The translations under genes and the position numbers were made by a program. DNA of 64,000 nt from an uncultured candidate division Zixibacteria bacterium. GTDB lineage: Bacteria; Zixibacteria; MSB-5A5; UBA10806; 4484-95. Below, piece by piece: positions 13,878-33,373 of the stretch. Every line of letters begins with the position of its first letter. Within the stretch, counting starts at the first letter, position 1. The stretch is taken from NCBI GenBank assembly GCA_963668625.2, contig CAXXKA010000009.1, positions 23,462-87,461 of the forward strand. The letters are read 5' to 3'. The notes beneath the pieces are model-generated. The model saw nothing but the letters and a program-made list of their open reading frames with translations. It ran no database searches and had not been told where the DNA came from.

Positions 13878-13973
13878 ATATCCCGGAACGCAATCGTTAA
13901 GCTATCATTTATATTCACTTTGCAATCAGTATATATTTGCAGATAGTGAGTAAAACGCATTTTGGAGGATTTC

Positions 13974-14408
13974 ATGCCAGAGGCAAAAGACGGCGATAAA
14001 GTAAAAATTCATTATACCGGTAAAGTTGAAAACGGCGAGCAGTTCGACAGTACGATTGGCGGCGAGCCGCTCGAGGTAAATATCGGCACTGCCGGTATTT
14101 TTCCGGCGGTGGAACAAAGCCTTATCGGCATGAAACCCGGCGATAAAAAGACCATAACGCTTCATCCCGACCAGGCTTTCGGCGGCCATCTGGAGGCGAT
14201 GGTGCTGGTTATTGATGATGAAGTGCTGCCCCCTGATTGCCCCCGCGAGGTAGGTACCCGTCTGAAAAACAAGCAGCCTAACGGGCGCATGGTGGATGTT
14301 ATGATTACCAAAGTCGAAGGCAATCAGGTCACGCTGGATGCCAACCATCCACTGGCCGGCAGGACCCTGACCGTGGATTTAGAGCTGGTAGAGATAGTTT
14401 CCGAATAA
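13974..14408 (+). CDS. FKBP-type peptidyl-prolyl isomerase (SlyD/FkpB-like)
   Basis: VKIHYTG, FDST, GMKPGD, LDANHPLAG. Confidence 0.92.
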   Translation: MPEAKDGDKVKIHYTGKVENGEQFDSTIGGEPLEVNIGTAGIFPAVEQSLIGMKPGDKKTITLHPDQAFGGHLEAMVLVIDDEVLPPDCPREVGTRLKNKQPNGRMVDVMITKVEGNQVTLDANHPLAGRTLTVDLELVEIVSE

Positions 14409-14613
14409 TATTAGATGATATAGGTTTACGGGAATAATCCGTCGCTTTTTCAGCAAGTCGATATTCTAATATAATGCCTCTGCAACTTATTGTGGATTAT
14501 CACTACTGTGTAATTTGGAACTAATACATTACCTTTAGATAAGAATATAAAATGCTGGCATTTATCGAAATTAAATATATATTAAACCAATCTTTCAAAA
14601 ATGTAACTAAGTA

Positions 14614-15105
14614 ATGAAAGGTGTGGGCAAAGGTTTAAAAAGAACAACTATGAACCATCATGAAAGCAACAATGGAATGCAAAACGTTTTCACCAAATTA
14701 GTTACAATCCTGCTATTCGTATTAATCTCCGCCTCGGTATTATCCGCCTGCGAAATATATTTCAGCGTGATCGGCGAGGAAAAAGAGACCTACGAAGCCG
14801 GAGATGAGATAGTCGTGTTAATGGAGGTCAAATTCACGCATCGCGTATGCCCCGAGGGAATCGAGAATACTGATTTCGCAACCGATGGTATCGATATTTT
14901 AGCCGCCACCAAATGGAAAGAACCCTCTCCTAATGTCTGGAAACGCAAGCTCAAATTGAAAGTTGAGGGCAACGAAAAAGGCAAGATAATGCTTTCGGCG
15001 ACACGCACTTGCGACAAAGAAGGCGGTTTCGGAGCGATAGATTTTAAAACCACGCCGTTGAATGTAGCCACAAAAGGAACTGCCGCCCAGGCGGATAAGA
15101 ACTAA
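14614..15105 (+). CDS. Secreted hypothetical protein, first gene of the Fe-S operon (start may be a later ATG)
   Basis: Hydrophobic signal segment ending VLSA/C; beta-rich mature part with 3 Cys and a Lys-rich strand. Confidence 0.7.
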   Translation: MKGVGKGLKRTTMNHHESNNGMQNVFTKLVTILLFVLISASVLSACEIYFSVIGEEKETYEAGDEIVVLMEVKFTHRVCPEGIENTDFATDGIDILAATKWKEPSPNVWKRKLKLKVEGNEKGKIMLSATRTCDKEGGFGAIDFKTTPLNVATKGTAAQADKN

Positions 15106-15116
15106 TCACATAAATT

Positions 15117-16259
15117 ATGCGATTTACTCCAAGGCGTACTACAAACCAGAGCAACCTGATTCTTTTCTCGATAATTTTCATCATATTTTTTATCTCACCG
15201 TCGCTCACGAGTCACATTTGTGCAGAGCAAACGGTTGAGGTTACCGAGACGTCCGAGGATGAATTCGAGGAATTCACCGAGGATGACCGATTAGAGGAAT
15301 TTAGCGATGATGATGAGTTCGAGGAATTCGATGAGACGAAGGAGAAATCGGGTAATTTAGATTGTGCGAGCAATCCCAACTCCTGCTCCGGCTGCGGTCC
15401 CGGGGTTAAAAGCCGCGAACAGATGTACCTTAAAAAAGCGCTTGACTGGACACTGGGTATACTGGGATTCACACTTTTAACCGGCGTGCTGGTTCGTTTC
15501 AGGTCGCTTCGTAACCTGAGGGGTTTTTTCCTGATCGGCTCGATCTCTATTTTAGGTTTTTACAAAGGCGCTTGCCCCTGCCCTATCTCGAGTTTTTCGA
15601 ACCTGTTTCTGGCGGGTTTCGGTGTCGATATCCCCTGGCAACACCTGGTGTGGTTTTTGGGCTTGATACCTATCACCTACCTGGTAGGCAAAGTCTGGTG
15701 TGGCTGGATATGCCATCTCGGGGCGCTGCAAGAGGTGCTTTTCATACCGGGACGGTTGAACGTTTTTAAAGGCGACCGCGCCCAACGTATCATGAAAATT
15801 TTCAGATGGCTGTTACTGGCCACGCTCATCACACAGCTTCTAATCACGAAAACATACATGTTCGATAAAATCGATCCGTTCCGGGTGGCGTTCAACCTTC
15901 TCTCGATAAACACCACCGGCTGGATTCTCCTGGGTCTGTTAATAATAAGCTCGCTTTTTATCTATCGCCCGTTCTGCCGCTCTGCCTGTCCTATCGGGCT
16001 GGTTCTCGGTTGGGTATCGAATATCCCCGGAGCCTCGATAATCGGCGTAAAAGGCGAATGCCGCAACTGCAAAGTCTGCAGCAACGCTTGTAAGGTAGAT
16101 GCTATCCATCGATACGAGAAATACAGCCTTCTGGATAATAAGGAATGCATAGCTTGCGGCGACTGTCTCGATACTTGTCCCAAAAAAGGGCTGGCTTTCG
16201 TGCGCAGCGGTAAAACTCATAAATCGGTAGTTAAGTATGAAAATACGGACGCTCGTTAA
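15117..16259 (+). CDS. NapH/MauN/NosR-like membrane 4Fe-4S protein
   Basis: Multi-TM; CPCP, WCGWICHLG and RPFCRSACP motifs; C-terminal CRNCKVCSNAC and CIACGDCLDTCP; N-terminal acidic repeat. Confidence 0.85.
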   Translation: MRFTPRRTTNQSNLILFSIIFIIFFISPSLTSHICAEQTVEVTETSEDEFEEFTEDDRLEEFSDDDEFEEFDETKEKSGNLDCASNPNSCSGCGPGVKSREQMYLKKALDWTLGILGFTLLTGVLVRFRSLRNLRGFFLIGSISILGFYKGACPCPISSFSNLFLAGFGVDIPWQHLVWFLGLIPITYLVGKVWCGWICHLGALQEVLFIPGRLNVFKGDRAQRIMKIFRWLLLATLITQLLITKTYMFDKIDPFRVAFNLLSINTTGWILLGLLIISSLFIYRPFCRSACPIGLVLGWVSNIPGASIIGVKGECRNCKVCSNACKVDAIHRYEKYSLLDNKECIACGDCLDTCPKKGLAFVRSGKTHKSVVKYENTDAR

Positions 16260-17613
16260 TCTTATAATACTATTAACATTCGTTACCCTGGCAAAACCGG
16301 TTTCGGCGCAATGGACATGCCGCACCAAGCTGCCGGCGTATCTAAAACCGATATACGACACGGTTCCCATTTACTGGGCGGCCGAGATAACACTCGCTCC
16401 GGGCAGGCTGGAAAGCCGGGATATAATCAACACACAGGCATTCTTAGGTTTGGATTTCACCAAAGGAAAACATCAGTTGTACGCCGAGGGCGGCTGGAAA
16501 ATGTGGCGCACCAGAGAGGATGGCCAGGAATACGACAAAAACAGGTTCGGGCCACGCGAGCTTTATTACCGTTACGGTGGAAATCAAGTTTCGTTGATAG
16601 CCGGCTTTCATTCGATGACCGCCGGTGATAATTTCCTGATTAGCGAAAAGGCCTCGGGGATGAGTTTCGATTACGCTACCGGCAAGTTCAAATTAAAAGC
16701 CAGGTTCGCCTCGGTCGATAAAGATTACTCGCGTTACGGCACGTTCTGCAGTGTGCGTTATATATATGATGTCCTCCCGCATCGAAAGCTTACATTACCC
16801 GGTGATAAATTCGGAGATACGAATTTCGGTAGTGTCGTGCTATCGTTTATACCATCGCAAAAAATACGAAAGCCAGAAAAGAAAAGTCAGCCAGAAAACG
16901 ATCTGAATGAAACCGATGAGTTCGAGGATTTTTCAGAGGATGACGAGTTCGATGAATTCACTGAAACGAATGAGTTCGACGAATTCCTGGAGAGCGATGA
17001 ATTCGAGGTTATCGATCAATCTAAAAATAAAAAAGACGATGGCCTCGGAGTCGACCTCTCGATACGGGAGTTCGGCCTGGTAGTCTACTCGCAATTCGGG
17101 CAGGACAATCGATACGAGGCGAAATATGCCGGGCTTATACTTAATTTCAGTATCTCGAACTCGCTCGATTTCAACAACGAACTTTTATTTCAATCGGACA
17201 GTGATAAAAAAGCTTTGATATTCTGCAATGAAGCGGCCTATGCGCATATCTGGGGCTCCGGCAGCCGAACCGAGTTTTCGGTTAAGTATTACGGCCGGGA
17301 GAAAATCGATGACGGGGCACAGGTGATGCTCGCCAATACCAATCTGTTTATCGGCGAGTTGGCCCGTCTTGATGCTGTCGATATGCCGCTGTTACAAACG
17401 GCGTTCAAGCATAATTTCCCGAAAATCCAGACGCATATAAAATTACAATACGCTACGCAATTCGAGTTCGATCATATAAAAGAATACAATCTGGCAATCG
17501 GTAAGACGTTTTTCGGCCATGCCAAGCTGACCGGCATGTATAGCATTCTCGAGGCGAATTCAATAGATGATACTTATCGGATGGTACGGTTAGAACTCCG
17601 GATGACTTTTTAG
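16237..17613 (+). CDS. Probable outer-membrane beta-barrel protein
   Basis: Sec signal (VSA|Q), alternating amphipathic strands, C-terminal MVRLELRMTF beta-signal; overlaps the upstream gene. Confidence 0.65.
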   Translation: MKIRTLVNLIILLTFVTLAKPVSAQWTCRTKLPAYLKPIYDTVPIYWAAEITLAPGRLESRDIINTQAFLGLDFTKGKHQLYAEGGWKMWRTREDGQEYDKNRFGPRELYYRYGGNQVSLIAGFHSMTAGDNFLISEKASGMSFDYATGKFKLKARFASVDKDYSRYGTFCSVRYIYDVLPHRKLTLPGDKFGDTNFGSVVLSFIPSQKIRKPEKKSQPENDLNETDEFEDFSEDDEFDEFTETNEFDEFLESDEFEVIDQSKNKKDDGLGVDLSIREFGLVVYSQFGQDNRYEAKYAGLILNFSISNSLDFNNELLFQSDSDKKALIFCNEAAYAHIWGSGSRTEFSVKYYGREKIDDGAQVMLANTNLFIGELARLDAVDMPLLQTAFKHNFPKIQTHIKLQYATQFEFDHIKEYNLAIGKTFFGHAKLTGMYSILEANSIDDTYRMVRLELRMTF

Positions 17614-17645
17614 GATTCGAGAATGAAAGTTTCGCGGGAGATATC

Positions 17646-19643
17646 ATGAAACATACGATAGATAAAGACAGGCGCAAATTCGTAAAGCAAGCCTCGGTCG
17701 CGACTTTAGGCGGAGCGCTTACTACCCTGTTCCCTGTTCTCTCCGGCTGCAGCCTGGAACCGTACGGAACCTACGAGATCGTACAATCGAAATGTATCGG
17801 TTGCGGTGAATGCCTGCCGTTTTGCAATCAGGATGCTATCGAGCTGCCGCGAAAATCAATCTACACTATCGTATCCGAAAACTGCCGCGAATGCCGTGAC
17901 TGCGTTCCCACCTGCGATCAAAACGCTATCGAGGTTGCCGCCGTGTTGTACGGTATCATCCTGCAGGATTGCGTAGAGTGCGGCGACTGCGTAACTATCT
18001 GTCCAGATGAGGCTATAGAGATCGCTATCATACGATTCCTGATCGATCAGGAACTCTGCCGGGATTGCGGACAGTGCGTTCCGGTCTGCCCCGAAAGCGC
18101 CATCGAGATATCCGTGGTCAATCATATAATAAACGGCGAAACCTGCCGGGATTGCGGCCAATGCTTGAACAAGTGCGAGGATGAGGCTATCGATATATCG
18201 GTGATCGATCACGAAATCGATACCCAAAACTGCCGGAACTGCGGCCAGTGTCTGACACTATGCGAGCAGTCGGCAATAGATATCTCGGTGATAAACCATC
18301 GCATAAACACCACCAACTGCAGAAACTGCGGTCAATGTGACAGCTTGTGCGAGCAAAACGCCATCGAAATATCGGTTATCGATCATGCTATCGATACCGA
18401 AACCTGCCGGGATTGCGGCCAATGCGTACCCCTGTGCGAGCAGGATGCGTTCGAGATATCGGTGATAGATTACGCCATAATTACCAACTATTGTGTGGGC
18501 TGCGGAGACTGTATAGATATATGCCGGCTCGAGGGCAGCGATTGCATATCCTATATCGGGGGAATCGATTACTATCGCGTATCATCAAACTGCCATTGCA
18601 ATCCGCGATGGTGCAGGAGCGCCTGTCCCGAGGGCGCTATAACGATCGTTAGCGGGCGCGCAGTAATTAACCATGAGCTGTGCACACGATGCGGCGCCTG
18701 CGCGGATGCCTGCCCGTATGATTATATCACTCCCTGCCGGGTTCAATTGGATGAGGATGCTTGCGTACATTGCAGTGGATGTTTCACGGCCTGTGGCGAG
18801 GGCGCTGTCAGACGGAATATCCCCTCCGATCATCACGACCCGCGTATCAATTCCGAAAGATGTAATAACTGTGGCGATTGTATTACCGAGGAGTTCTGTC
18901 AATTCACCGCCATTGAGGAGGTCGTGCCGCAAAACCATCACGATCCCGTTATAAACCTGGATTCGTGCAATAATTGCGGCGACTGCCTGACCGAAAGTTT
19001 CTGCCAGTATAACGCGATAGAACAGGATATACCATCCAACTATCATGACCCGGCTATAGATCATGAGCTATGCAATAATTGCGGCGACTGCCTGACCGAA
19101 AGTTTCTGCCAGTACGGCTCTATCGTAACGGATGTCCCGGATGATTATCATGAGCCCTCGATAAACAGCGAGCTTTGTACCAACTGCAATGATTGCGTAC
19201 TGGAAAATTATTGCGAATACGGCGCAATCGAAAGAGATGTCCCCGAGGAATATCACGAACCCGTGATCAACACCGAGCCATGTAACAATTGCGGAATATG
19301 CCTGACAGAGAATGCCTGCGAGTACGGCGCTATCGAAAAGCATTTCCCGGAGGAATATCACGATCCGCGAATTGACACGGACAAATGCAGCTTATGCGGT
19401 GATTGTCTCGAGGAATACGAATGCCCTTACGCAGCGATCGAGAAACAGTTGCCGGAGGATTACGCACCGCCGAGAATCAACAGCCAATCGTGCACCAGTT
19501 GCGGCGACTGCTCCGAGTCGTGCCCAGAGGACTATGATGCTATAGATATCGAACTATTCAAGGCTGAGATAAACACCGATAATTGTACTAAATGCGGCAA
19601 ATGTGAAACTCATTGTCGTTTCGATGCCATAGTTGAGGATTAA
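17646..19643 (+). CDS. Tat-exported lipoprotein polyferredoxin with 20 Cys4 ferredoxin motifs
   Basis: DRRKFVK Tat motif, LSGC lipobox at Cys35, 19 CxxCxxC-x3/x5-C motifs plus one variant (CHCNPRWCRSAC); GGAG SD. Confidence 0.9.
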   Translation: MKHTIDKDRRKFVKQASVATLGGALTTLFPVLSGCSLEPYGTYEIVQSKCIGCGECLPFCNQDAIELPRKSIYTIVSENCRECRDCVPTCDQNAIEVAAVLYGIILQDCVECGDCVTICPDEAIEIAIIRFLIDQELCRDCGQCVPVCPESAIEISVVNHIINGETCRDCGQCLNKCEDEAIDISVIDHEIDTQNCRNCGQCLTLCEQSAIDISVINHRINTTNCRNCGQCDSLCEQNAIEISVIDHAIDTETCRDCGQCVPLCEQDAFEISVIDYAIITNYCVGCGDCIDICRLEGSDCISYIGGIDYYRVSSNCHCNPRWCRSACPEGAITIVSGRAVINHELCTRCGACADACPYDYITPCRVQLDEDACVHCSGCFTACGEGAVRRNIPSDHHDPRINSERCNNCGDCITEEFCQFTAIEEVVPQNHHDPVINLDSCNNCGDCLTESFCQYNAIEQDIPSNYHDPAIDHELCNNCGDCLTESFCQYGSIVTDVPDDYHEPSINSELCTNCNDCVLENYCEYGAIERDVPEEYHEPVINTEPCNNCGICLTENACEYGAIEKHFPEEYHDPRIDTDKCSLCGDCLEEYECPYAAIEKQLPEDYAPPRINSQSCTSCGDCSESCPEDYDAIDIELFKAEINTDNCTKCGKCETHCRFDAIVED

Positions 19644-20444: not shown

Positions 20445-20825
20445 ATGGCTCCAAGTCCAAACAAACCAACATCAGCTGAACTTGATATTCTCCGGGCGCT
20501 TTGGAAAATCGGCCCTTGCTCGGTTAAGGATGTCCAGAATTTTCTTCAGGATGAACGCGGCTATACGACTATATTAAAACTTCTACAGATTATGACAACC
20601 AAGAAACTGGTAAAACGCGTAAAAAAGGATCGTGCCCATATATATCAGGCCTCATACAGCGCCGATCAAACCCAGCGCAGTATGATCTCGGATTTGCTAA
20701 ATCGGGTTTTTGATGGTTCCTCGAGCAAACTTGTCATGCAGGCGTTATCAACCAGGAAAGCCTCGAAAGATGAGTTGGCGGAAATCCGAAAGATGCTCGA
20801 TAATTTAGAAGGAGATTTAAAATGA
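20445..20825 (+). CDS. BlaI/MecI/CopY family repressor
   Basis: AELDILRALW, GYTTILKLLQIM, FDGSSSKLV. Confidence 0.93.
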   Translation: MAPSPNKPTSAELDILRALWKIGPCSVKDVQNFLQDERGYTTILKLLQIMTTKKLVKRVKKDRAHIYQASYSADQTQRSMISDLLNRVFDGSSSKLVMQALSTRKASKDELAEIRKMLDNLEGDLK

Positions 20826-23323
20826 TCGATTCAATCATTCAAATGATTAAACCGATTGCCATCCCCATCTCCTGGACTCTCATCCATTCGCTCTGGCAGG
20901 CATTAGTTATAGCGGTGGTGCTTACCCTGGCGTTGTATATTTTTCGACGCTCAAGTTCCAGATTCAAATATATTCTGGCGCTGGGCGCGCTGGGAACGAT
21001 TCTTCTGGGTTCGATCTCGACTTATTATCTCTACTCTGTTGACCATGAATACGCAAAAATGTTAAAAACCGAGACAATCACTCCGGTAACTACCGCTTCG
21101 GCTTTGATCGGCCTCGAAGAACCGGCAGTGGCGGAGACGCCATTCGAGGGAAACTCCGTTTCTGTGAGCTCAAACGGCTATGACGCTCTTATCTGGTTGT
21201 TCGTGCTCTGGGTGGTCGGCGTACTTACGCTTACTATATATAATTTCATCAGTTGGCAATGGACACGTTATTTCACCACGACATTGATACAGCCGATTTC
21301 GGAGAAATGGCAGGAGCGTTTCGATGATCTGTGCTATCGTCTTAAAATGGATCGAGCCGTACGGCTGATAGAGTCCAAATTGATACAATCACCCTGCGTA
21401 ATCGGTTGGTTCAAACCGATTATTCTGGTACCGTCCGGAATATTCACGGGATTCAATACCCAGTATCTCGAGATGATTTTAACTCACGAACTGGCGCATA
21501 TCAAAAATTACGATATCCTGATAAATTATTTCCAGAAATTCATCGAGACATTATTATTTTTCAATCCCTCGGTCTGGTGGATATCCAGGAAAATCAGGTT
21601 CGAGCGTGAACATTGTTGTGATGACCTGGTGGTTTCAACATATAACGATAAATTGAAATACGCCCATGCCCTGGCCGATCTCGAGCAGTTCCGGCAGAAA
21701 CAATTCGGTTTCGCGATGGCGGCCAGAGGCGGCTCTCTAATCGGTCGTATAAAACGGCTTATCGGTAAATCGGAAAAATCGAATTACCGTTCGGGTCTGG
21801 GAGCGGTGCTGGTAACAGCTTTCTCGCTCATGCTGATTGTCGGGATCTGCCTGTTTGCGGTCGACGATTCCGAGGTAGCTATAGCTCAAACATCGAATAC
21901 CAATCTTCTGAACATACCGCCGGAGAATTACACTTTGAAAGGTTATTGGGATATGGCCTGGTACGGCGACAAAGTCGATATTAAAATGAGTTTCCGCAAT
22001 AGCAACCAGTACGATCGAACGTTCTGGTACGATGAGTTAGTCGGTCTCGAAAAGGAACAAGATATCAAATTCACGATGGTGAAGGATGCCGGTACGGTAT
22101 ATTTCGAGGGTACCATGGATAAGATCGGCAATGAGTGCCTCGGCTCCGGTAATTGCTGGTTCGTAGCTAACATTGATTTTATTGATGAGATCGCGAAACT
22201 GGGCTATCGCAACTCCGGTGAATACGATAACGCACAGGATAAGCTTCTAAACCTGGCCTTATCGAACATGAGCCTGGAATACGCTCGCCAGATAAAGCAA
22301 TTGGGACATGACGATTTGACTATCAATGAATTAATCAAGCTGCATTATCATGGCGTGAGCGTGGAATATATCGCCGAACTGGAGCAAGTGGGCTATAGCA
22401 AGTTAACATCACGCGAACTTCTTAGAATGAAAGACCATGGCGTTGATGCTTATTTTATTTATGCCTTGCATAAATATGGCTATAATGAAATCCAAGTGGA
22501 TGAGCTCATTAAATGCAAGGATCACGGCGTCAACGCCAGGTTTATCGAGAAAATGATTGCCCTTGGTTACGAGGACCTTTCATTAACGGAATTAGTGCGG
22601 ATGAAAGATCATGGCGTGGATGGTGAATACGTAAAGAAGATATCCGAGAGCGGCTTGGAGTTTATCGAGGCCGATGAAATGGTGAAACTTCGAGATCACG
22701 GCATTGACCATGAATTCATAAAAGAAATGCAAAAGCTGAAAGGCAGCAATTTAACGCCCGAGGAATTGATCAAGCTTCACGATCATGGTGTATCCGCAAG
22801 CTATATCGAAACGATACATACCAGCGGTTATGCTAATTTTACTCCTCATGAAATTATCAAAATGAGTGACTATGGCGTAACCGGTGAGTTCATCAAACAG
22901 CTATCCGAAAGCGACTATGATTATTTCAGCGCGGATGAAATCGCCAAGATGTGCGCCTATGGGGTTAACGGTGATTTTATTGAGGCGCTGGCCAGGTGTG
23001 GCTATGATAATTTAACCGGCAACGAGATTGCTAAAATGAGTAGCTACGGCGTCAATGCCGATTATATCGAAGAAATTAAAAAAAGCGGCTATGATGATTT
23101 AACACCACAGGAATTGATCAAACTTCGCGAATACGGCGTGAGCGGAGATTACTTGAACGCTCTGGCGGTTGTTGGATATAAAAAAATAGAGCCGGGAACA
23201 ATAGTCAAGATGCACAACTATGGTGTGGATGCCGATTATATCAAGGATGTTAACGAGGATTTGGGTAAAAAACTTTCGCCGGAAAAATTGATAAAATATA
23301 AAAACACCAGCTATTACAACTAA
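20822..23323 (+). CDS. BlaR1-like M56 metallopeptidase with C-terminal 29-aa repeats
   Basis: LIHSLWQ, HELAH, FFNPSVWW, EREHCCDD; about 12 repeats of the type ELIKxxDHGVxxxYI. Confidence 0.9.
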   Translation: MIDSIIQMIKPIAIPISWTLIHSLWQALVIAVVLTLALYIFRRSSSRFKYILALGALGTILLGSISTYYLYSVDHEYAKMLKTETITPVTTASALIGLEEPAVAETPFEGNSVSVSSNGYDALIWLFVLWVVGVLTLTIYNFISWQWTRYFTTTLIQPISEKWQERFDDLCYRLKMDRAVRLIESKLIQSPCVIGWFKPIILVPSGIFTGFNTQYLEMILTHELAHIKNYDILINYFQKFIETLLFFNPSVWWISRKIRFEREHCCDDLVVSTYNDKLKYAHALADLEQFRQKQFGFAMAARGGSLIGRIKRLIGKSEKSNYRSGLGAVLVTAFSLMLIVGICLFAVDDSEVAIAQTSNTNLLNIPPENYTLKGYWDMAWYGDKVDIKMSFRNSNQYDRTFWYDELVGLEKEQDIKFTMVKDAGTVYFEGTMDKIGNECLGSGNCWFVANIDFIDEIAKLGYRNSGEYDNAQDKLLNLALSNMSLEYARQIKQLGHDDLTINELIKLHYHGVSVEYIAELEQVGYSKLTSRELLRMKDHGVDAYFIYALHKYGYNEIQVDELIKCKDHGVNARFIEKMIALGYEDLSLTELVRMKDHGVDGEYVKKISESGLEFIEADEMVKLRDHGIDHEFIKEMQKLKGSNLTPEELIKLHDHGVSASYIETIHTSGYANFTPHEIIKMSDYGVTGEFIKQLSESDYDYFSADEIAKMCAYGVNGDFIEALARCGYDNLTGNEIAKMSSYGVNADYIEEIKKSGYDDLTPQELIKLREYGVSGDYLNALAVVGYKKIEPGTIVKMHNYGVDADYIKDVNEDLGKKLSPEKLIKYKNTSYYN

Positions 23324-24534: not shown

Positions 24535-25182
24535 CTATCCACTACCGCCGTTATTAAAATAATCCATATCCAGACATTTCAACTCGAACGATCTAACCGG
24601 CGATACCCCTACGTTGAAATCGATCATCATGTTGGCCAGCTTTAAGCCGTCTATAAGCACGATATTGATATCGATGCTGGAGGCGTAGAGTATCGCCTCG
24701 GAGGAGAACTCGGAGGTGGTGATAAACACTCCCTTACGCGCACGCTTACCCTGCAACGCTCCGGCGAATTTCTGTATCTCGGGACGGCCAACAGTACCTC
24801 GCCATCTCTTGGCCTGTATGTAGATAACATCCAGCCCCAGTCTATCCTCGTTGATTATACCATCGACGCCCTCATCATAGCTCCCGCCCACAACCTGCCC
24901 GGCCTCCTCCCGCGATCCGCCATAGCCCATTTTCACCAACAGATCGACCACCAGTTTCTCGAAATAATCCGGTGGTATGGTTTTCACGTACTGCAGTATC
25001 TCATCGATGAGCGCTTTTTTCGCGCCCTGGTAGAGAAGGTCAATCAGCTCCTCGGGATTATTACCGCCCTTGATCACCTCGATATCCGAGGCGCAATCTA
25101 AAAGCGCAATCTTAAACAACTGATGTTCCGGTTTGGATATAGACACTTTGCTGACCTTTAGAGAAGGACCAAAACAACTCAA
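24535..25182 (-). CDS. mrr: Mrr-family type IV restriction endonuclease, catalytic domain only
   Basis: FEKLVVDLLVKMGYG, DEGVDG, YIQAKRW, GRPEIQKFAGAL; no N-terminal wHTH domain. Confidence 0.8.
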   Translation of the reverse strand: MSCFGPSLKVSKVSISKPEHQLFKIALLDCASDIEVIKGGNNPEELIDLLYQGAKKALIDEILQYVKTIPPDYFEKLVVDLLVKMGYGGSREEAGQVVGGSYDEGVDGIINEDRLGLDVIYIQAKRWRGTVGRPEIQKFAGALQGKRARKGVFITTSEFSSEAILYASSIDINIVLIDGLKLANMMIDFNVGVSPVRSFELKCLDMDYFNNGGSG

Positions 25183-25995: not shown

Positions 25996-26898
25996 ATGCA
26001 AAATCCTAAGCTTAAAAACACTAAGTATGAATATAGTATTGAAAAGTTAAGATTTTATTTAAGTTATATATATCATAGATTCCTAGTATTATTTGAAACA
26101 AAAAATCCGAAAATAAAATTATTTTTGCTTAATAGTATTTATTCGTTTATAAATTTAATCTGCCTGTTTACCAAAAACTATGATCTAATCAAAAAGTTTA
26201 ATAAAATAAGCGACATAGATTATGCGGAAACAATATTTGGAAAATTTAATATAAAAAAATACACGACCGATTCGTTAATAGTTGCACCATCTTACGAGCG
26301 AAGAGACGTAGATTTTTTAATTAAAAAAGTATCTCAAGAAATACTTAACAAGAACAAGATTTTATTTTTAGATATTGGTGCAAGTTTTGGCTATTATTCA
26401 ATACTATTGTCGAATTATTTTGCAAATGATGAACTATTAAAAATATATAGTTTCGAGCCAATACCCAGTAACAGATCTTTATTTGAAAAGAATATCAAAT
26501 TAAATGATTGCAAGAATATAAAAGTATTCCCTTTTGCTATATATAATGAAAATGATATAGACATTTCTATGAAAATAGTAGAAGGAGCTAACTCACAAAG
26601 TCATATATCACTTGATATGCAAAATAATAATACAGAGCTGGTTAGAGCAAGAACTATAGATAGCCTGCTATTAAGTGAAGTAAATGATATTGATACTGTT
26701 TTTATAAAATTAGACGTAGAGGGATATGAAACAGAAGCCTTGATTGGCGCAAAGAATTTCTTAAAATTAAAGAAAAGAGTTTATCTGATGGTTGAAGATT
26801 TTTTAAACCATAGAGTTATAGAATTTTTGGAAAACTGTGACGCTACTTTCTTAGGGAAATTTAGTAATTACAACAGCTGGTGGAAGTTTCGGACATAA
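25996..26898 (+). CDS. FkbM family SAM-dependent methyltransferase
   Basis: LDIGASFGYYS, SFEP, IKLDVEGYE; visibly AT-rich. Confidence 0.9.
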   Translation: MQNPKLKNTKYEYSIEKLRFYLSYIYHRFLVLFETKNPKIKLFLLNSIYSFINLICLFTKNYDLIKKFNKISDIDYAETIFGKFNIKKYTTDSLIVAPSYERRDVDFLIKKVSQEILNKNKILFLDIGASFGYYSILLSNYFANDELLKIYSFEPIPSNRSLFEKNIKLNDCKNIKVFPFAIYNENDIDISMKIVEGANSQSHISLDMQNNNTELVRARTIDSLLLSEVNDIDTVFIKLDVEGYETEALIGAKNFLKLKKRVYLMVEDFLNHRVIEFLENCDATFLGKFSNYNSWWKFRT

Positions 26899-26960
26899 AT
26901 AGGGTTTGCTGAATAATTATGAACATCATAGTTTAGCGATAGATAGCTTTGTTCTGCCTC

Positions 26961-27919
26961 CTCGTTCCCAAACTCCTGTTTGGGAACGGGATTGCCCGAG
27001 AAACTCCTGTTTCGAATTTAAAAACGGGCGGGGCGCAAGTCGGTGAGCTGTAGCTCCCGACATGGGGCGGGGAAATGTGGCTGAGTCGAGCGTATCCCTA
27101 TCGCCTCGCGGCTCCTCAGGAGCTACAGCTCCTGAGCTACTCACCGGCCCGCATATAATGGTAGATAGCCTCACAATACCTCAGGAGGAAAGCGAAGCGA
27201 CATCCTGAGGTGCTGCCCGCCGGAGATGGGATTATGGTTTATGCTTGACTGCTGGTGGCTGAGCGTCAGGATGTCGTTCCTTCCCTCCTGACGCAGGTGA
27301 AGTAGTGGTTGCCAAACCACCTCGTTCACAAACTCCAGTTTGGGAACGGGATTGCCCGAGAAACTCCGGTTTCGAGTGGTAAGATTAGTATATTTGATTA
27401 GACAAAACAAAGTTTTTATCGCAAGTGGGTTCCCAAACTCAGTTTGGGAACCAGAGAAGAATCAAAACGGGTCGATCTTAGATCGCCCCCTACGAGTTCA
27501 CATCTTTTTTGACTCAGCTTGATAAACTGCGACATCCTCACGATACCTCAGGAGGAAAGCGAAGCGACATCCTGAGGTGCTGCCCGCCAACAGTGAGATG
27601 ATGGTTTATGCTTTGCTGCTGAGGGTCGAGCGTCAGGATGTCGTTCCTTCCATCCTGATACAGGTGGACATTACCAGTCATTGCGAGGACCGGAGGCACG
27701 AAGCAATCCGCCAAATAGCAATAGGCTGTTTCCTATATTGATAAGTCCCATAGTTAACAGACGATCTGAGGTTTGCTAAAACGGGCTGGGCGTAGGTCGG
27801 TGAGCCGTGTCCCGTAGGGATGGCTATGCCAGCTCCCGACACGGGGCGGGGAAATGCGGCTAATTCGCGCGTATCCCTATCGCCTCGCGGCTCCTCAGGA
27901 GCTACAGCTCCTGAGCTAC
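26961..27919 (+). repeat. Cluster of REP/REPIN-like elements (B at 26961, 27321, 27429; A at 27035 and 27792; C at 27176 and 27543; E at 27677)
   Basis: Several near-identical palindromic units visible directly; element A spans GTAG(27792) to CTAC(27919). Confidence 0.85.
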
Positions 27920-28007
27920 TTGGCTGACTATTGATATTTATATGGAGTTATTTTAACTTGACTTTATGGCAATGATTTATATTATATTGTTATCAACTAA
28001 AGTAAGT

Positions 28008-29273
28008 CACTAGTGTCCGGGCTTTGAGGCTGGCTTGACAGACCTCCTATAATAAGGGTGTAAACGCTAATTATAACACCTTTGTTTACAGGAGGTTAAA
28101 AATGCAAGGGAAGGTTACAATACTTCGCCAGATAACGCAAATGATTTCTCGATACGATTTCCAAAAAGCAGTTTCGACTGGCAAAGGGCGGCATTTCACG
28201 GTTTCTTTCGGCTACTGGTCGCACCTGGTGGCGATGATATTCGGGCAATTATCGGAGCAGCAATCGCTGCGTGATCTGGTCTTGAATCTTTCCCGTCAGG
28301 CGCATAGGTTTTACCATCTGGGTATGTCAAAGATACGCCGTTCGACTTTTTCGGATGCCAACAATCATCGGCCCTCGGCAATATACGAGAACTTGTTTTA
28401 CATATTATTGAATCGTTACGGTTGTCATTTTCAAGGCAAAAACCGGAAGCTGGGGAATAAATTATACTCAGTTGATTCGACGGTCATAGATTTGTGTCTG
28501 GGGTTATTTTATTGGGCTAAATTCAGAACGACCAAGGCCGGTGTCAAGCTTCATGTCAGGTTAAACCATGATGGTTACATCCCTGATTTTGCGGTTGTCA
28601 CCAATGCCAATATTCATGATTCCAGAGTCAGGAAGATGTTCAATTTACCGGCTGGCAGTATCGTGACTTTCGACAAAGGCTACAATGACTACAGTCTTTT
28701 CAAGTTATTAAATGATAAGGGGATAATCTTTGTCACGCGGCAGAAGAATAACGCTAAATACAAAGTAATCAAACGGTGTAGAACTAATCGTAAGCAAGGA
28801 GTCACCTCCGATCATTGGATTGAATTTACCGGTTTTTACTCCAAGCAAAAATGTTCGATTAGGCTGAGACGAATCCGTTATATCGATAAAGAAACCGGTA
28901 AAGTTTATGTATTCCTGACCAATGATTTCAAACATGCCGCCTCGACTATTGCCGACATTTATAAGCAGCGCTGGCAGATAGAATTGTTTTTTAAAGCGTT
29001 AAAACAGAACCTTGTGATCAAGACTTTCTGGGGTACCTCCAAGAACGCAGTATATTCCCAGATCTGGGTGGCTTTGATAATCTATTTGTTAATGAGCGCG
29101 CTGAAATACAAATACAAAATATCGGCCTCAGTTGGAAAGTTAATTCAGAGAATCCGGTCATTCGTGTTTGAAAAAGATGATGTCCTGAGATTCCTTAAAG
29201 ACCAAATACCAATCCCAATACAAATCGCTCAAACATCTCAAATTAACCTGTCCCTAAAGGCCGGACACTAGTG
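28008..29273 (+). mobile_element. Complete IS4-family insertion sequence
   Basis: IRL CACTAGTGTCCGG (28008) and IRR CCGGACACTAGTG (ends 29273); 9-bp direct repeat AAAGTAAGT at 27999-28007 and 29274-29282. Confidence 0.95.
28102..29271 (+). CDS. IS4 family DDE transposase
   Basis: DUF4372-like N-terminus, VDST, FDKGY, YKQRWQIELFFKALKQ. Confidence 0.96.
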   Translation: MQGKVTILRQITQMISRYDFQKAVSTGKGRHFTVSFGYWSHLVAMIFGQLSEQQSLRDLVLNLSRQAHRFYHLGMSKIRRSTFSDANNHRPSAIYENLFYILLNRYGCHFQGKNRKLGNKLYSVDSTVIDLCLGLFYWAKFRTTKAGVKLHVRLNHDGYIPDFAVVTNANIHDSRVRKMFNLPAGSIVTFDKGYNDYSLFKLLNDKGIIFVTRQKNNAKYKVIKRCRTNRKQGVTSDHWIEFTGFYSKQKCSIRLRRIRYIDKETGKVYVFLTNDFKHAASTIADIYKQRWQIELFFKALKQNLVIKTFWGTSKNAVYSQIWVALIIYLLMSALKYKYKISASVGKLIQRIRSFVFEKDDVLRFLKDQIPIPIQIAQTSQINLSLKAGH

Positions 29274-29359
29274 AAAGTAAGTATTAACTGAATTGAGTTT
29301 TAATAACATAAATAATTAAAGAGGTTGTGACATTTAGATTAAAGAACAAGGGGAATAAG

Positions 29360-30382
29360 ATGAAAAATGCTATCTCACAAGCGTTGCTTATAATTTTATG
29401 TTCAGTCCTAGTAAATGCACAGGATTATCAAACTATAGAACACCATAAAGACATCAAGCGTGCTGAATATTGGGCTACTAAAGGTTATAACTTCGATCCA
29501 TCAAATATGTCTGCTTATTCAATGGATCAAAAAGTTAAAGATATAGAACGCGCAAGATACTGGAAGCAACAGGGTTACTCATTTGATCCTGATTATATGA
29601 CTGCTTATTCTATGGATCAGAAAGTTAAGGATATTGAGCGGGCAAGATACTGGAAGGAACAAGGATATCAATTTGACCCTGACTACATGACCGCTTACTC
29701 TATGGATCAAAAAGCAAAAGATATTAAGCGGGCAAGATACTGGAAGGAGCAAGGATATCAATTTGATCCTGACTATATGACTGCTTATTCTATGGATCAG
29801 AAAGTAAAAGATATTAGACGCGCAAAATACTGGGAGCAACAGGGTTACTCATTTGATCCTGATTATATGACTGCATACTCTATGGATCAAGCTGTTGCTG
29901 AAGATAAGGCACATTCATATCCTCCAAGTGAAAAATCACAAACATTTAATCAGCAAACACAAATGCAATTATATGAAATACCTGAAATAGATTCTAGATT
30001 GAATGATTCAGATAATGATAATGAATTATCCGATGTCACTAATACGGATTCAGATGATGAATATGAAATTAAATATAACCCATTTGACGGACGATTTCAA
30101 TACGTTCCCGAAAATTCTCAGATTAAATATAATCCGTATGAAAACCAGTTTTCTTACCAGCGCGAGCAGGATGTAATAAAATATAACTCTTTCGAAAACG
30201 AGTTTCAATATACAGATCCAAATGCTACGCTTCATTACAATGCTTATGAGAACATATTTGAATATGGAACGCAAGATTCCCAACTCAAATATAATCCTTT
30301 TTCGAACAAATTTGAACGAGTCCCAGCAGATTCTAAATTACGATATAATCCATTTGAAAATACTTTTGATTATGAGAAATAG
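29360..30382 (+). CDS. Secreted tandem-repeat protein (5x30 aa plus 6x18 aa)
   Basis: Signal peptide VNA|Q; repeats KDIERARYWKEQGYQFDPDYMTAYSMDQKV and KYNPFENxFxY. Confidence 0.8.
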   Translation: MKNAISQALLIILCSVLVNAQDYQTIEHHKDIKRAEYWATKGYNFDPSNMSAYSMDQKVKDIERARYWKQQGYSFDPDYMTAYSMDQKVKDIERARYWKEQGYQFDPDYMTAYSMDQKAKDIKRARYWKEQGYQFDPDYMTAYSMDQKVKDIRRAKYWEQQGYSFDPDYMTAYSMDQAVAEDKAHSYPPSEKSQTFNQQTQMQLYEIPEIDSRLNDSDNDNELSDVTNTDSDDEYEIKYNPFDGRFQYVPENSQIKYNPYENQFSYQREQDVIKYNSFENEFQYTDPNATLHYNAYENIFEYGTQDSQLKYNPFSNKFERVPADSKLRYNPFENTFDYEK

Positions 30383-30435
30383 AAATTTGGTCTAGTGCCA
30401 AGATGTTATTCCACAATCCATATCCGTATGTAAAT

Positions 30436-31392
30436 TTAATCATTAATTTTATTCAGATATTGCTCTATCAAGTTATATGAATCGCCAATCATGCCATCAG
30501 GCTTTGTATAAATAAAATTCTTTTTGGATGAATAAATAAACCGCTCCGCCCCAGAGGCAACACGGCTATTAAAATTAGCAGTTAATTTTATATCAGCTTT
30601 GTATTTTTCCTTAGCCTTTTCAAAAGTCCCCATTAACATATAACGCCTATTTAGAGGCATCAGTAAAAATGTTTTATTTAACCCAAATCCAGGGCCAAGA
30701 AAAGATTTAGAATCTTCAAAAAAAGTTAACGATACGGGTCTATCACAACAGATAAAACTTGCAGCAGTAGGATCTTGAATTTTAATCAATGTCCAATTTC
30801 TATCATGCAACATTGGCAATATAATATCAACTGTTTCAAATATCCAATAAACAAGCCATGTTCTATCAATTTTTATATCATATCTATCGCTAAAAATGAA
30901 CTCTTTCATTTCCTCAAAATTTAATTTATCATCTATTTCATACCCTTCTTTTCTCATCTGACTTATAATTGAATTGTATCTTTCTTCTGAGCTAAATGTT
31001 ATTTCCGCTGTAGCTCTAGCGATATCTTCAGTTAGCTTAGATATTACTTTCCTAAAACCTGGTGTTCTTACTGATAGTAAAGCTAGAAAATACATTAGTA
31101 TTTTAAAATCTTCACCTGTAGGGATTTCATTATATTTGATAATATTATTGATAACTGGCGCTGTACCGCTTTCAATTTTAGCAAACATTTCTTCTACAAC
31201 ATTGTTATTTATCTCATTACTATCAATCTTATAATAATCTTTTTGCTTTGCTATTTTTTCAGGCTTACTTTTAAAGCTATTTCCATTTGATGTATCAAAT
31301 ACCCAAAGGTCATCCTCTCTTTTTCCTGAAGGCGTGAATCCCGCTAAGTAGAATTGGGGCACAAAATGATGCATTTTAGGTTCATTAAGCAT
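30436..31392 (-). CDS. DUF4238-family protein
   Basis: N-terminal HHFVPQFYLAGF, VEEMFAKIES, FICCDRPV; AT-rich. Confidence 0.8.
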   Translation of the reverse strand: MLNEPKMHHFVPQFYLAGFTPSGKREDDLWVFDTSNGNSFKSKPEKIAKQKDYYKIDSNEINNNVVEEMFAKIESGTAPVINNIIKYNEIPTGEDFKILMYFLALLSVRTPGFRKVISKLTEDIARATAEITFSSEERYNSIISQMRKEGYEIDDKLNFEEMKEFIFSDRYDIKIDRTWLVYWIFETVDIILPMLHDRNWTLIKIQDPTAASFICCDRPVSLTFFEDSKSFLGPGFGLNKTFLLMPLNRRYMLMGTFEKAKEKYKADIKLTANFNSRVASGAERFIYSSKKNFIYTKPDGMIGDSYNLIEQYLNKIND

Positions 31393-31522
31393 GAAGAAAT
31401 ATATAATATTATTAAGATTTTCAAAATAAAAGAATAAGCGCTCTATTCATTTTATAATAACACATCCCCCCTCCCCCCCAATCTCCTATTGACCGCCGCC
31501 GTTTAAATTATATATTTACCCT

Positions 31523-31837
31523 CAATATAATGATAATGACTCGGGCTTATGCGTGCGCCCGAATGTAAACGATAATTCTCAAGCGGAATTATTGGCCAGG
31601 TGGAGGCTGTACCGGGTGAGGGCACCCGGCTGCTGTAGAGGCTATGCCGAAACACCAGAGGCCATGCGGCGGCAAGTTAGTGTCGCTGCCCGCTAACGCC
31701 GGAGGCTGTACTCCCATTACCTGAACCTTATGCCCTCAATACACTTTGTGGTTGGTACCCATTGGGTGCCAACATGCCGGCGAACCGGGAGGTACGTCAG
31801 CCACAAACAAATCGTTTCTTTACGGAGGATTAATTAA
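31523..31837 (+). ncRNA. Candidate structured cis-regulatory leader of the hutH-like gene
   Basis: Promoter-like TTGACC-N16-TATATT (31489-31516), several GC-rich hairpins and four RGAGGCYRTRC motifs. Confidence 0.45.
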
Positions 31838-33373
31838 ATGTCAATAAAACTTGATGGTTTCTCACTCACGATCGAGGATGTCGAAAAAATAGCCCGCCAC
31901 GGCGAAAAAGTGGAGGTCGCGCCCGAGGCCTGGGATCGTATCAATAAATGCCGGGCGATGCTGAATAAGAAAATCGAGGCCGGCGAGATCATGTACGGTG
32001 TAAACACCGGTATCGGCGAGTTCTCCGAGATCGTCTTAACCGATGAGCAGGTCAAGGATTTCCAGCGTTACCTTATCTACAACCATTCGGCCGGTATCGG
32101 GCAGCCCGCCCCGATCGAGCACGTGCGCGCCGCCATGACCACCCGTATCAATGTCCACTGTCACGGCAATTCCGGCCCGCGCCCGGAGATCACCCAGACC
32201 CTGGTCGATCTTCTAAACAAGGGAGTAACACCGGTAGTCTGCGAAAAAGGCAGTGTCGGCGCCTGCGGTGATCTGGCCCCGATGAGCCAGATCGCGCTCA
32301 TGATGATGGGTGAGGGCGAGGCATTCTACCAGGGCAAGCGTATGCCCTCGGCCGAGGCCATGAAACTGGCCGGCATACCTGTCCCCGGCTTGCAGGCTCG
32401 TGATGGCTTAGCGACTATCAACGGCTCGAATTTGATAGCCGGCATGGGCTGCTTGCAGCTTGTGGATACCGAGCGCGTACTCAAACAGGCCGAGATCGCC
32501 TGCGCCATGACCCTTGAGGCGCTACTGGCCAACATGAAACCCTACGATGAACGCATACATAAACTTCGCGGATTTGCCGGCGCGGTGAAGACCGCCGCCA
32601 ATATCCGCAAGCTTACCGAAAACTCAGATCTGGTGACAGGCAAACTCAAGGTTAAGGTTCAGGATGCCTACTCGATGCGCTCCACCCCGCAGGTGATCGG
32701 CGCGGCGAGAGACCATCTGGCCTACACCCGCAAACAGTTCGAGACCGAGATCAACGGCGTGGGCGATAACCCGATATTCCTGCCCGACGATGATGTCGTA
32801 CTCTCCGGCGCTAATTTCCAGGGCACCCCGATGAGCCTGCCTCTGGATATGGTCGGCGCCTCAATAGCCATGGTCAGCGTACTTTCGGAGAGACGCTTAA
32901 ACCGTCTGTTGAACCCCGCCTTAAGTATAGGCCTGCCCGCCTTCCTGACCAAGGGCGCGGGGATGTTCTCCGGACACATGCTCTCGCAGTACACCGCCGA
33001 TATGCTGATTGTCGAACAGCGCATACTCTCTACCCCATCCTGTATACAGTCGATCCCGGCGGCGGCCGATCAGGAGGACTTTGTCAGTATGGGCATGAAT
33101 GGCGCGCTAAAAACCCGTCAGATACTGGACAACGCTTACGGCGTATTGGGTATCGAGATGATTGCCGGCGCGCAGGCGTTGGATTTCCGCGAATTCAGTT
33201 TCGGAAAAGGCACCCAGGTCGCGCACGATGCCGTCCGCAAGGTAGTCGAGCATCTGGATATAGACCGTCCGCTGTTTACCGACCATAACAACATGGCTGC
33301 GGCGGTTAAGAGTAATGATATCTTGAACGCGGTAGAGGCCGAGGTCGGGCCATTGACTGCCTCGTGGGAATAA
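31838..33373 (+). CDS. hutH: Aromatic amino acid ammonia-lyase (histidine ammonia-lyase-like)
   Basis: YGVNTGIG, GSVGACGDLAP, GLATING, QDAYSMR, DNP, GANFQG, QEDFVSMG; hutI is present in the window. Confidence 0.85.
   Translation: MSIKLDGFSLTIEDVEKIARHGEKVEVAPEAWDRINKCRAMLNKKIEAGEIMYGVNTGIGEFSEIVLTDEQVKDFQRYLIYNHSAGIGQPAPIEHVRAAMTTRINVHCHGNSGPRPEITQTLVDLLNKGVTPVVCEKGSVGACGDLAPMSQIALMMMGEGEAFYQGKRMPSAEAMKLAGIPVPGLQARDGLATINGSNLIAGMGCLQLVDTERVLKQAEIACAMTLEALLANMKPYDERIHKLRGFAGAVKTAANIRKLTENSDLVTGKLKVKVQDAYSMRSTPQVIGAARDHLAYTRKQFETEINGVGDNPIFLPDDDVVLSGANFQGTPMSLPLDMVGASIAMVSVLSERRLNRLLNPALSIGLPAFLTKGAGMFSGHMLSQYTADMLIVEQRILSTPSCIQSIPAAADQEDFVSMGMNGALKTRQILDNAYGVLGIEMIAGAQALDFREFSFGKGTQVAHDAVRKVVEHLDIDRPLFTDHNNMAAAVKSNDILNAVEAEVGPLTASWE

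Follow-up and report, generated by a model that had tools for sequence, protein, structure and literature searches.

A locus in the genome of an uncultured candidate division Zixibacteria bacterium raises the question of what a cell might do with four closely packed genes that together seem to encode an iron-sulphur (Fe-S) electron pathway through the envelope. The genes lie in a stretch of 64,000 nucleotides (contig CAXXKA010000009.1 of GenBank assembly GCA_963668625.2; hereafter the window). An earlier note, made from the sequence of this stretch, had read them as a candidate haem-free conduit consisting of a membrane Fe-S protein, an outer-membrane barrel and an exported polyferredoxin. The genes, named g1 to g4 in this study, are the following open reading frames (ORFs; lengths in amino acids, aa):

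14614-15105, + strand: g1, 163 aa, ORF as listed, small exported Cys/His protein (predicted)
15117-16259, + strand: g2, ORF of 380 aa, membrane Fe-S protein (predicted)
16237-17613, + strand: g3, ORF of 458 aa, candidate outer-membrane barrel
17646-19643, + strand: g4, ORF of 665 aa, exported polyferredoxin (predicted)

A gap of 11 base pairs (bp) separates g1 from g2, g2 and g3 overlap by 23 bp, and g3 is followed by g4 after 32 bp, all on the + strand. Coordinates and translations thus agree with the earlier description of four co-oriented, closely packed ORFs carrying the quoted motifs. The analysis presented here shows that these genes represent a real, conserved and unnamed envelope redox module, built on a membrane protein of the NapH/NosR/CcoG kind, which probably carries electrons into the periplasm. 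Literature searches, which covered one library of articles, yielded no description of this module, and the accessible part of PMC10734462 contained nothing relevant.

That the four-gene arrangement is not a product of chance follows from the recurrence of the same gene order in two relatives, 61 genome loci and 73 metagenome loci. Among 41 genomes searched, including the window's own (G000, in which the window is part of contig C9), g3 was present in three, namely G000, the same-genus genome G001, whose contig belongs to a metagenome-assembled genome (MAG) labelled Candidatus Zixiibacteriota, and the same-family genome G009. Both relatives carry the same four genes in the same order and, as the flanks differ in G009, the operon appears as a self-contained unit. 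A word-indexed protein collection contained 21 clusters of the g3 family, the window's own among them. Scanning genomes with single g3 patterns found nothing, whereas an alignment-based scan with one genome per species succeeded and yielded the 61 g3-seeded loci. Most of these are located in MAGs of Bacteroidales, others in MAGs labelled as Ignavibacteria, Melioribacteraceae, Acidobacteriota, Myxococcota, Fibrobacteres, Opitutaceae or Neomarinimicrobiota. The few labels Gammaproteobacteria, Hyphomicrobiales and Anaerolineales may be binning errors; all carriers are MAGs.

Gene presence in the 61 loci was scored by tblastn at 1e-5. In all 54 assessable loci g2 was located directly upstream of g3, and g1 was present in each of the 49 loci where it could be assessed. 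A g4 homologue followed downstream in 18 of 53 assessable loci, and two further loci contain g4, one cut by the contig end (L052) and one with a miniature form (L020). The reverse test, in which 73 metagenome loci were seeded with g1, gave g2 as the next gene in 52 of 53 cases, g3 in 32 of 38 and g4 in 6 of 23; at least five of these loci, including L125 and L139, contain the g1-g2 pair without g3. In a quick maximum-likelihood tree of 58 g3 proteins, the starred set of 25 rows that includes the window has g4 in 20 rows and no MMPL gene. The starred clade of 33 rows completely lacks g4; there, 12 rows have an MMPL gene, 16 have neither and five could not be assessed. The invariant module is therefore g1-g2-g3, and the four-gene unit is the norm in the branch of the window. 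The earlier idea of one conserved four-gene unit holds for this branch, but not for the family as a whole, as g4 is not universal.

The protein at the centre of the module is g2. In Pfam it matches Fer4_5 (1.6e-11) and dicluster ferredoxin families; FMN_bind is not among its Pfam hits. Its motifs CGWICH and CRSACP, both retained in 30 aligned homologues, and a C-terminal 2x[4Fe-4S] dicluster domain identify it by sequence as a polytopic inner-membrane Fe-S protein of the NapH/NosR/CcoG (Fer4_5) superfamily. The core of all 30 homologues reads GKVxCGWxCxLGAxQE and RPFCxxxCPxGL, followed by the dicluster domain. The NapH-type membership proposed in the earlier note is borne out at the level of the superfamily, with scores far below the family cut-offs: 70.9 bits for NapH/MauN (TIGR02163, cut-off 213.05), 63.6 bits for NF007013 (cut-off 234) and 54.9 bits for NosR (NF046105, cut-off 1000), where the match covers NosR positions 418-662. 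For CcoG (TIGR02745) the family score is 19.6 bits at a cut-off of 316.7, and a comparison of alignments by hhalign gave 98.8% (E 1.4e-16, 199 columns). The CcoG-associated domain FixG_C (PF11614) was not found in G000. Judged by hydropathy and charge, the N-terminus of g2 would be periplasmic and its C-terminus cytoplasmic. All 30 aligned homologues share a cleavable-looking signal and an acidic tail with Asp/Glu-Phe repeats, which in the window corresponds to:

15225-15440, + strand: acidic Asp/Glu-Phe repeat tail of g2 (residues about 37-108, from the alignment)
15253-15329, + strand: 27-bp tandem repeat within this tail (tandem-repeat scan)

The constant partner of g2 is g1, predicted to be a small, beta-rich protein exported by a Sec-type signal and mature from Cys46. 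Its listed ORF probably begins too early. Judged from the alignment and the DNA, the third in-frame ATG, at 14677, is the likelier start, since the resulting 24-residue signal resembles those of the homologues. The family comprises 318 clusters at 50% identity, nearly all members having about 125 aa, and its alignment exhibits the invariant columns C46, H76-R77-x-C79, W101 and C133-x-K135-x-G137-G138, with an equally invariant Ala just before the first of these Cys. No Pfam, NCBIfam or PDB match beyond chance was obtained for g1. Upstream of the invariant Cys, position -3 is mostly A, S or T and position -2 is bulky or charged, which speaks for cleavage by signal peptidase I, leaving the Cys as a free N-terminus, more than for a lipobox. 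A role of g1 as a lipoprotein plug for g3 was considered and dismissed on account of these same two positions. The net charge of the family has a median of +3, that of the window's g1 is -3, and the invariant Lys and Arg are present.

A direct link between the two proteins is a natural g1-g2 fusion (P0182, 458 aa), in which the g1 domain is N-terminal (residues 21-136, 97.7%) and the g2 part spans residues 183-452 (E 2e-32). The place of g1 in this fusion indicates that it would act on the periplasmic side of g2, together with the signal-led N-terminus of g2. P0182 is the only fused form among the best 150 of 318 g1 hits; a search for longer fused g1 forms gave none, which is weak evidence. 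The view of g1 as a bystander, as it had been treated earlier, could thus not be upheld.

A likely assignment for g3 is an outer-membrane beta-barrel, as judged from features of its sequence. It has a signal peptide ending VSA|QW and no hydrophobic helices, and its C-terminus alternates hydrophobic residues, ending RLELRMTF in the window and with a terminal F in 16 of the 21 aligned clusters. C28 and C171 are invariant in this alignment of 21 clusters. An Alginate_exp alignment has a beta-amphipathic fraction of 0.304, g3 one of 0.236 and a helical control one of 0.061, but the measure lacks specificity, as g1, a beta-rich protein that is not a barrel, scores 0.245. By language-model features (Atlas), the nearest neighbours of g3 are unnamed clusters and alginate-export clusters (0.95-0.96). 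Neither Pfam nor NCBIfam contained a match, the 21 members gave only chance hits against Pfam at E up to 10, and a PDB profile search returned just a chance V-ATPase match (E 0.51). Comparisons by hhalign detected no homology to Alginate_exp (PF13372; 1.3%), DUF1302 (6.5%), cluster c8 (1.3%) or MMPL (0.2%). These negative profile results weigh little, as two known barrel families score only 26.6% against each other. A central part of g3 is formed by an acidic insert, outside of which about 360 residues remain, suggesting roughly 16-20 strands by a crude estimate:

16852-17076, + strand: central acidic Asp/Glu-Phe insert of g3 (residues about 206-280), kept in 21 of 21 aligned members

Acidic-aromatic repeats are found in two components of the module, one predicted for the inner and one for the outer membrane. 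The motif [DE][DE]F has a rate of 0.08 per 100 aa in 577 neighbouring proteins, while the rates for g2 and g3 are 1.01 and 0.67, respectively. At least two such motifs are present within the first 130 residues of 30 of 32 g2 homologues, and in g3 the motifs are located at relative positions 0.50-0.62 of the protein. We know of no description of the same acidic-aromatic repeat on inner- and outer-membrane components. Such repeats could attract cations or serve as docking sites for a shared partner.

The optional fourth protein, g4, contains 83 Cys residues (13% of its residues), arranged in 19 regular Cys4 motifs and one irregular Cys group at residues 300-327, and the earlier count of 20 Cys4 motifs is therefore a fair one. 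The spacing of the motifs is 29 aa in the N-terminal half and 35 aa in the C-terminal half, mirrored by tandem arrays in the DNA:

17670-17687, + strand: twin-arginine motif RRKFVK of g4 (residues 9-14)
17739-17750, + strand: lipobox LSGC of g4 (residues 32-35)
18139-18474, + strand: DNA tandem array of 3.9 copies of 87 bp (68% matches), encoding 29-aa cluster units
18966-19360, + strand: DNA tandem array of 3.8 copies of 105 bp (72% matches), encoding 35-aa cluster units

Eleven ferredoxin families of Pfam match g4, and against MvhB/VhuB (NF045874) it reaches 88.6 bits at a cut-off of 600. When residues 1-330 of g4 were put into a word-index search, most of the proteins retrieved were generic ferredoxins and known homologues did not appear; this result was not used. 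Among 16 adjacent g4 homologues the lipobox is present in all (L, I, V or M at -3) and the twin-arginine pair in 15 (L011 has RG), while the number of cluster motifs ranges from 7 to 19. In L020 (6831-7160), the miniature g4 of 109 aa combines RRNFLK and a lipobox with just two Cys4 motifs, and a second g1 paralogue and an ArsP_1 permease come after it. As its relatives keep the lipobox and the motif typical of twin-arginine translocation (Tat), g4 is very probably a Tat-exported lipoprotein, as had been proposed, and TatC is encoded in the genome of the window. The statement that characterised polyferredoxins are cytoplasmic overstated the novelty of this, since the accessible part of PMC5449189 already describes the Tat-exported, periplasmic NapG.

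None of the four genes is accompanied by an evident terminal enzyme. Within about 6 kilobases of the window operon there is no hydrogenase, molybdoenzyme or dehalogenase gene, and neither these nor other catalytic enzymes were encountered in the 61 genome-locus layouts or in the other loci examined. Genes for napA/napG or mau are likewise missing in the window flanks and the 61 layouts. The CxxCH haem motif does not occur in g4, and none was seen in the translations of g1 to g3. On both points the earlier note, which had seen neither a catalytic subunit nor a haem motif, was correct.

Which genes do accompany the module depends on the branch. In the sister branch without g4, TetR regulators (23/61 genome loci and 33/73 metagenome loci), HAE3/MMPL pumps (12/61 and 10/73), LolA-like carriers (9/61 and 7/73), DUF1302 barrels (11/61 and 9/73) and Cupin proteins (8/61 and 4/73) recur. 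The MMPL protein scores 237 bits against the HAE3 family, below its cut-off of 351.9, and also resembles HpnN. Three g4-type loci (L007, L038 and L045) have genes for an ECF sigma factor, a zf-HC2 anti-sigma factor and a Metal_resist protein upstream, a trio which may be equivalent to CnrYXH; for L051, cluster labels indicate the anti-sigma factor and Metal_resist. RND pumps of the CusA/CzcA family, scoring above cut-off, are found in L038 and L051, and DUF2202 occurs in six loci. In L022, which has no g4, as well as in L020 with its mini-g4, the triad adjoins an ArsP_1 permease that resembles a Cu/Zn efflux family below cut-off. In L125 (6101-8449), a ZIP-type transporter, identified from reading the sequence, is located 21 bp upstream of a g1-g2 pair that lacks g3. 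Opitutaceae/Opitutales MAGs have the triad or a g3 fragment next to large cytochromes (L061 9543-11114; L062 2527-5049; L066 8572-15396). Those of L061 and L062 contain 3-5 CxxCH motifs and show a likeness to MtrC/MtrF domains II/IV below cut-off (26.8 versus 30 bits), and the cytochrome of L066 belongs to the same sequence cluster. Around the operon in the window, in G001 and G009 and in those metagenome loci with g4 that are long, the flanking genes are unrelated.

In the window itself, the operon is flanked by genes for SSB, FKBP, NAD synthase, an RsmI-like protein, lipid synthesis, BlaI/BlaR1 and Mrr. Two short elements upstream of g1 were noted as consensus matches, which do not by themselves imply function:

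14428-14442, + strand: terminator-like hairpin, 3' of the FKBP gene
14447-14475, + strand: sigma-70-like promoter match, ahead of g1

The FKBP gene just upstream of the operon (13962-14408) encodes a SlyD-like isomerase, which is also present in the same-genus genome (L004) and not in G009. SlyD has been linked to Tat signals and to metal insertion. As a member of the operon it was rejected, being kept only in the same-genus relative and followed by the terminator-like site. A BlaI-type repressor (Penicillinase_R) and an 833-aa BlaR1/M56 peptidase are encoded at 20445-23323; the long C-terminal part of the latter is built from numerous units of about 30 aa resembling 'ELIKLHDHGVS'. This pair was rejected as regulator of the operon, as it is missing downstream of the operon in G001 and G009. 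Further along, the region 26000-32000 has a G+C content of 0.36-0.40, compared to about 0.46-0.48 around it; this possible foreign island lies next to a gene for an Mrr-type nuclease (24535-25182).

How could these components work together? Our leading interpretation, which is tentative and falls a little short of an even chance, is a NapGH-like system that delivers electrons to the periplasm and has its own outer-membrane channel, with metal cations as the likeliest substrate. In such a system g2 would take electrons at the inner membrane, either from quinol or from a cytoplasmic donor, and hand them to periplasmic partners, its C-terminal 2x[4Fe-4S] domain and CxxxC(H/P) motifs presumably facing the cytoplasm and its acidic N-terminal tail the periplasm. 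The constant periplasmic partner g1 would provide a substrate- or metal-binding redox site. Added in the branch of the window, g4 might form a lipid-anchored chain of about 20 [4Fe-4S] clusters serving as a NapG-like relay or buffer, and g3 would be a dedicated outer-membrane barrel that either gives the substrate access to the periplasm or tethers the module to the outer membrane. The Asp/Glu-Phe repeats of the g2 tail and the g3 insert could gather the cationic substrate or dock a common partner. The cation would then be reduced for the sake of homeostasis, for detoxification or in dissimilatory use. Our first guess for the substrate is a metal cation because of the kinship of g2 with CcoG, the Cys/His set of g1, the acidic repeats and the heavy-metal neighbours of some loci.

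Several points weigh against this interpretation. A metal context is found in only about five of 20 g4-type genome loci and in none of the 73 metagenome loci (seven with g4), the flanks in the window, G001 and G009 are housekeeping genes, and the larger sister branch with TetR, HAE3/MMPL, LolA-like and DUF1302 genes points to hydrophobic compounds, not to metals. For g1, the protein assumed to bind the substrate, neither a fold nor a family could be recognised and no homology to FixG_C was detected (hhalign 0.4-0.8%), and the assignment of g3 as a barrel is drawn from sequence features. How electrons pass the membrane through NapH-type proteins is itself unsettled. Moreover, exposed Fe-S clusters are targets of copper toxicity, and a role of g4 in copper stress therefore fits badly.

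The conduit envisaged in the earlier note, in which g2 oxidises quinol and the g4 wire enters or caps g3 in the manner of MtrA/MtrB, passing electrons to extracellular acceptors or receiving them from donors, is in our view unlikely. It draws on the four-gene unit being found in 20 of the 25 rows of the window's branch, with several phyla by MAG label, on the missing terminal enzyme in the 61 layouts and on the signals by which g4 would be exported and lipid-anchored. None of the g4 homologues has Asp at +2, and following the sorting rule of E. coli, lipoproteins without Asp at +2 are directed to the outer membrane. Assuming the usual cluster spacing, a chain of about 20 clusters might reach across roughly 20-25 nm, and in one Opitutaceae MAG the triad adjoins cytochromes with 3-5 CxxCH motifs and sub-cut-off likeness to MtrC/MtrF domains. 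However, g4 is missing in 35 of 53 assessable loci and in the whole 33-row branch, and its motif number varies tenfold, from 2 to about 20; an optional protein of such variable length does not agree well with a wire that bridges a set distance. Porins of the MtrB type, with 26 strands, are much larger than g3, for which roughly 16-20 strands are estimated, so that a ferredoxin domain may not fit inside. The conduit also leaves no role for the invariant g1, and the genome has multihaem cytochromes of its own (13 ORFs with at least three CxxCH motifs, maximum 11). ORF clusters with 4 to 11 CxxCH motifs are located at G000:C6:751816-761256 and C10:469174-476204. To our knowledge, all known outer-membrane electron conduits use multihaem cytochromes. 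In a bolder variant, which we likewise regard as improbable, the Fe-S wire docks on or in the new barrel, with g1 and the acidic repeats providing docking or substrate capture, and metals are reduced at the outer membrane or outside the cell without cytochromes. If true, this would represent a second, Fe-S-based solution to extracellular electron transfer that is spread over several phyla.

The neighbours in the sister branch could alternatively mean that the module acts on a hydrophobic or lipid-like redox compound, such as a quinone, sulfur or a lipid, together with HAE3/MMPL, LolA-like and DUF1302 proteins under control of TetR, with g4 as an add-on in one branch. The frequency of these genes, their co-oriented position directly after g3 and the likeness of the MMPL protein to HAE3 (below cut-off) and HpnN all agree with this, but such neighbours are confined to the g4-less branch and missing around the window, the acidic repeats suggest cations over lipids, and adjacency may reflect shared regulation alone; we consider this explanation quite unlikely. 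Least probable appears a function in storage, capacitance or sequestration of Fe-S clusters or metals, in which g4 would hold electrons in the periplasm like a capacitor or, being rich in thiols, soak up metals. A repeat number that is variable and has grown by tandem duplication would fit a dose or capacity function, as would the metal-resistance neighbours of some loci. Yet the Tat signal implies export of a folded, cofactor-loaded protein, and a protein that is always paired with an electron-transfer protein of the NapH type is more likely to turn over than to store.

The operon joins a NapH/CcoG-type protein and a large exported polyferredoxin with two families, g1 and g3, that have no Pfam, NCBIfam or PDB relative. 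Even the conservative reading, delivery of electrons to the periplasm, already defines a new periplasmic redox module with a Cys/His site in g1, shared repeats and a polyferredoxin of variable cluster number. The module recurs in uncultured Zixibacteria and Bacteroidota, and further MAGs that carry it have labels such as Ignavibacteriota, Acidobacteriota and Myxococcota. It may reveal what proteins of the NapH/NosR/CcoG type do where neither nitrate nor N2O nor cbb3 is involved and, should its substrate be a metal, would be relevant to how metals are cycled in anoxic sediments.

Among known systems, the cytoplasmic polyferredoxins MvhB/VhuB share with g4 the tandem Cys4 motifs and the match to VhuB; g4 differs from them by remaining below the family cut-off, by its Tat signal and lipobox and by the lack of hydrogenase genes nearby. 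The likeness to ECF metal sensing of the CnrYXH type with CzcCBA/CusCBA efflux is one of context only, as the ECF/zf-HC2/Metal_resist trio and a CusA/CzcA pump flank some g4-type loci; this context is restricted to a minority of loci and missing in the window. The porin-cytochrome conduits MtrCAB, OmbB-OmaB-OmcB and PioAB resemble the operon in that electron entry at the inner membrane, a multi-cofactor periplasmic protein, a barrel and a lipoprotein are encoded together, all of which are predicted here. Unlike in these conduits, the cofactor protein of the operon has no haem motif, is optional and varies in length, and there is the additional invariant g1. FtrD is a NapH-like polyferredoxin. 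Its family is not described in the accessible part of PMC11966278.

As far as its predicted topology goes, g2 is built like NosR/NirI, with a signal at the head of a periplasmic N-terminal part, CxxxCP motifs in a polytopic core and a ferredoxin domain on the cytoplasmic side. It differs by the lack of an FMN_bind hit and by a score far from the NosR cut-off, and nos genes are missing. The accessible part of PMC7558416 presents CcoG as a cupric reductase; it contains two [4Fe-4S] clusters as well as an Ig-like domain, of unknown role, in the periplasm. Like CcoG/FixG, the module combines a homologous Fer4_5 membrane core with a periplasmic beta-rich domain and has a context of metal homeostasis in some loci. 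In contrast to FixG_C, g1 is a separate protein that is encoded upstream, is N-terminal in the one fusion and shows no detectable homology to that domain, and the ccoHIS and cbb3 context is missing.

According to the accessible part of PMC5449189, NapH is a Sec-inserted protein of four helices with cytoplasmic [4Fe-4S] clusters and NapG a Tat-exported protein with four periplasmic clusters, the two of them forming a quinol dehydrogenase; fused forms exist, such as a NapH-NapG 'polyferredoxin' in the deltaproteobacterium MLMS-1. Differences to the operon are clear: g2 lies far below the NapH cut-off and opens with a signal peptide and a tail of acidic repeats, g4 would bind about 20 clusters instead of four, has a lipobox and is NapG-like in role only, and NapA, NapB and NapC are missing here, just as g1 and g3 have no Nap counterpart. 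Nevertheless, as far as that source goes, both pair a polytopic protein of the Fer4_5 kind, which has CxxxCP-type motifs and ends in a dicluster domain, with a partner that carries many [4Fe-4S] clusters and is exported by Tat, as predicted for g4, and NapGH is the closest match to the g2-g4 pair among systems of known function.

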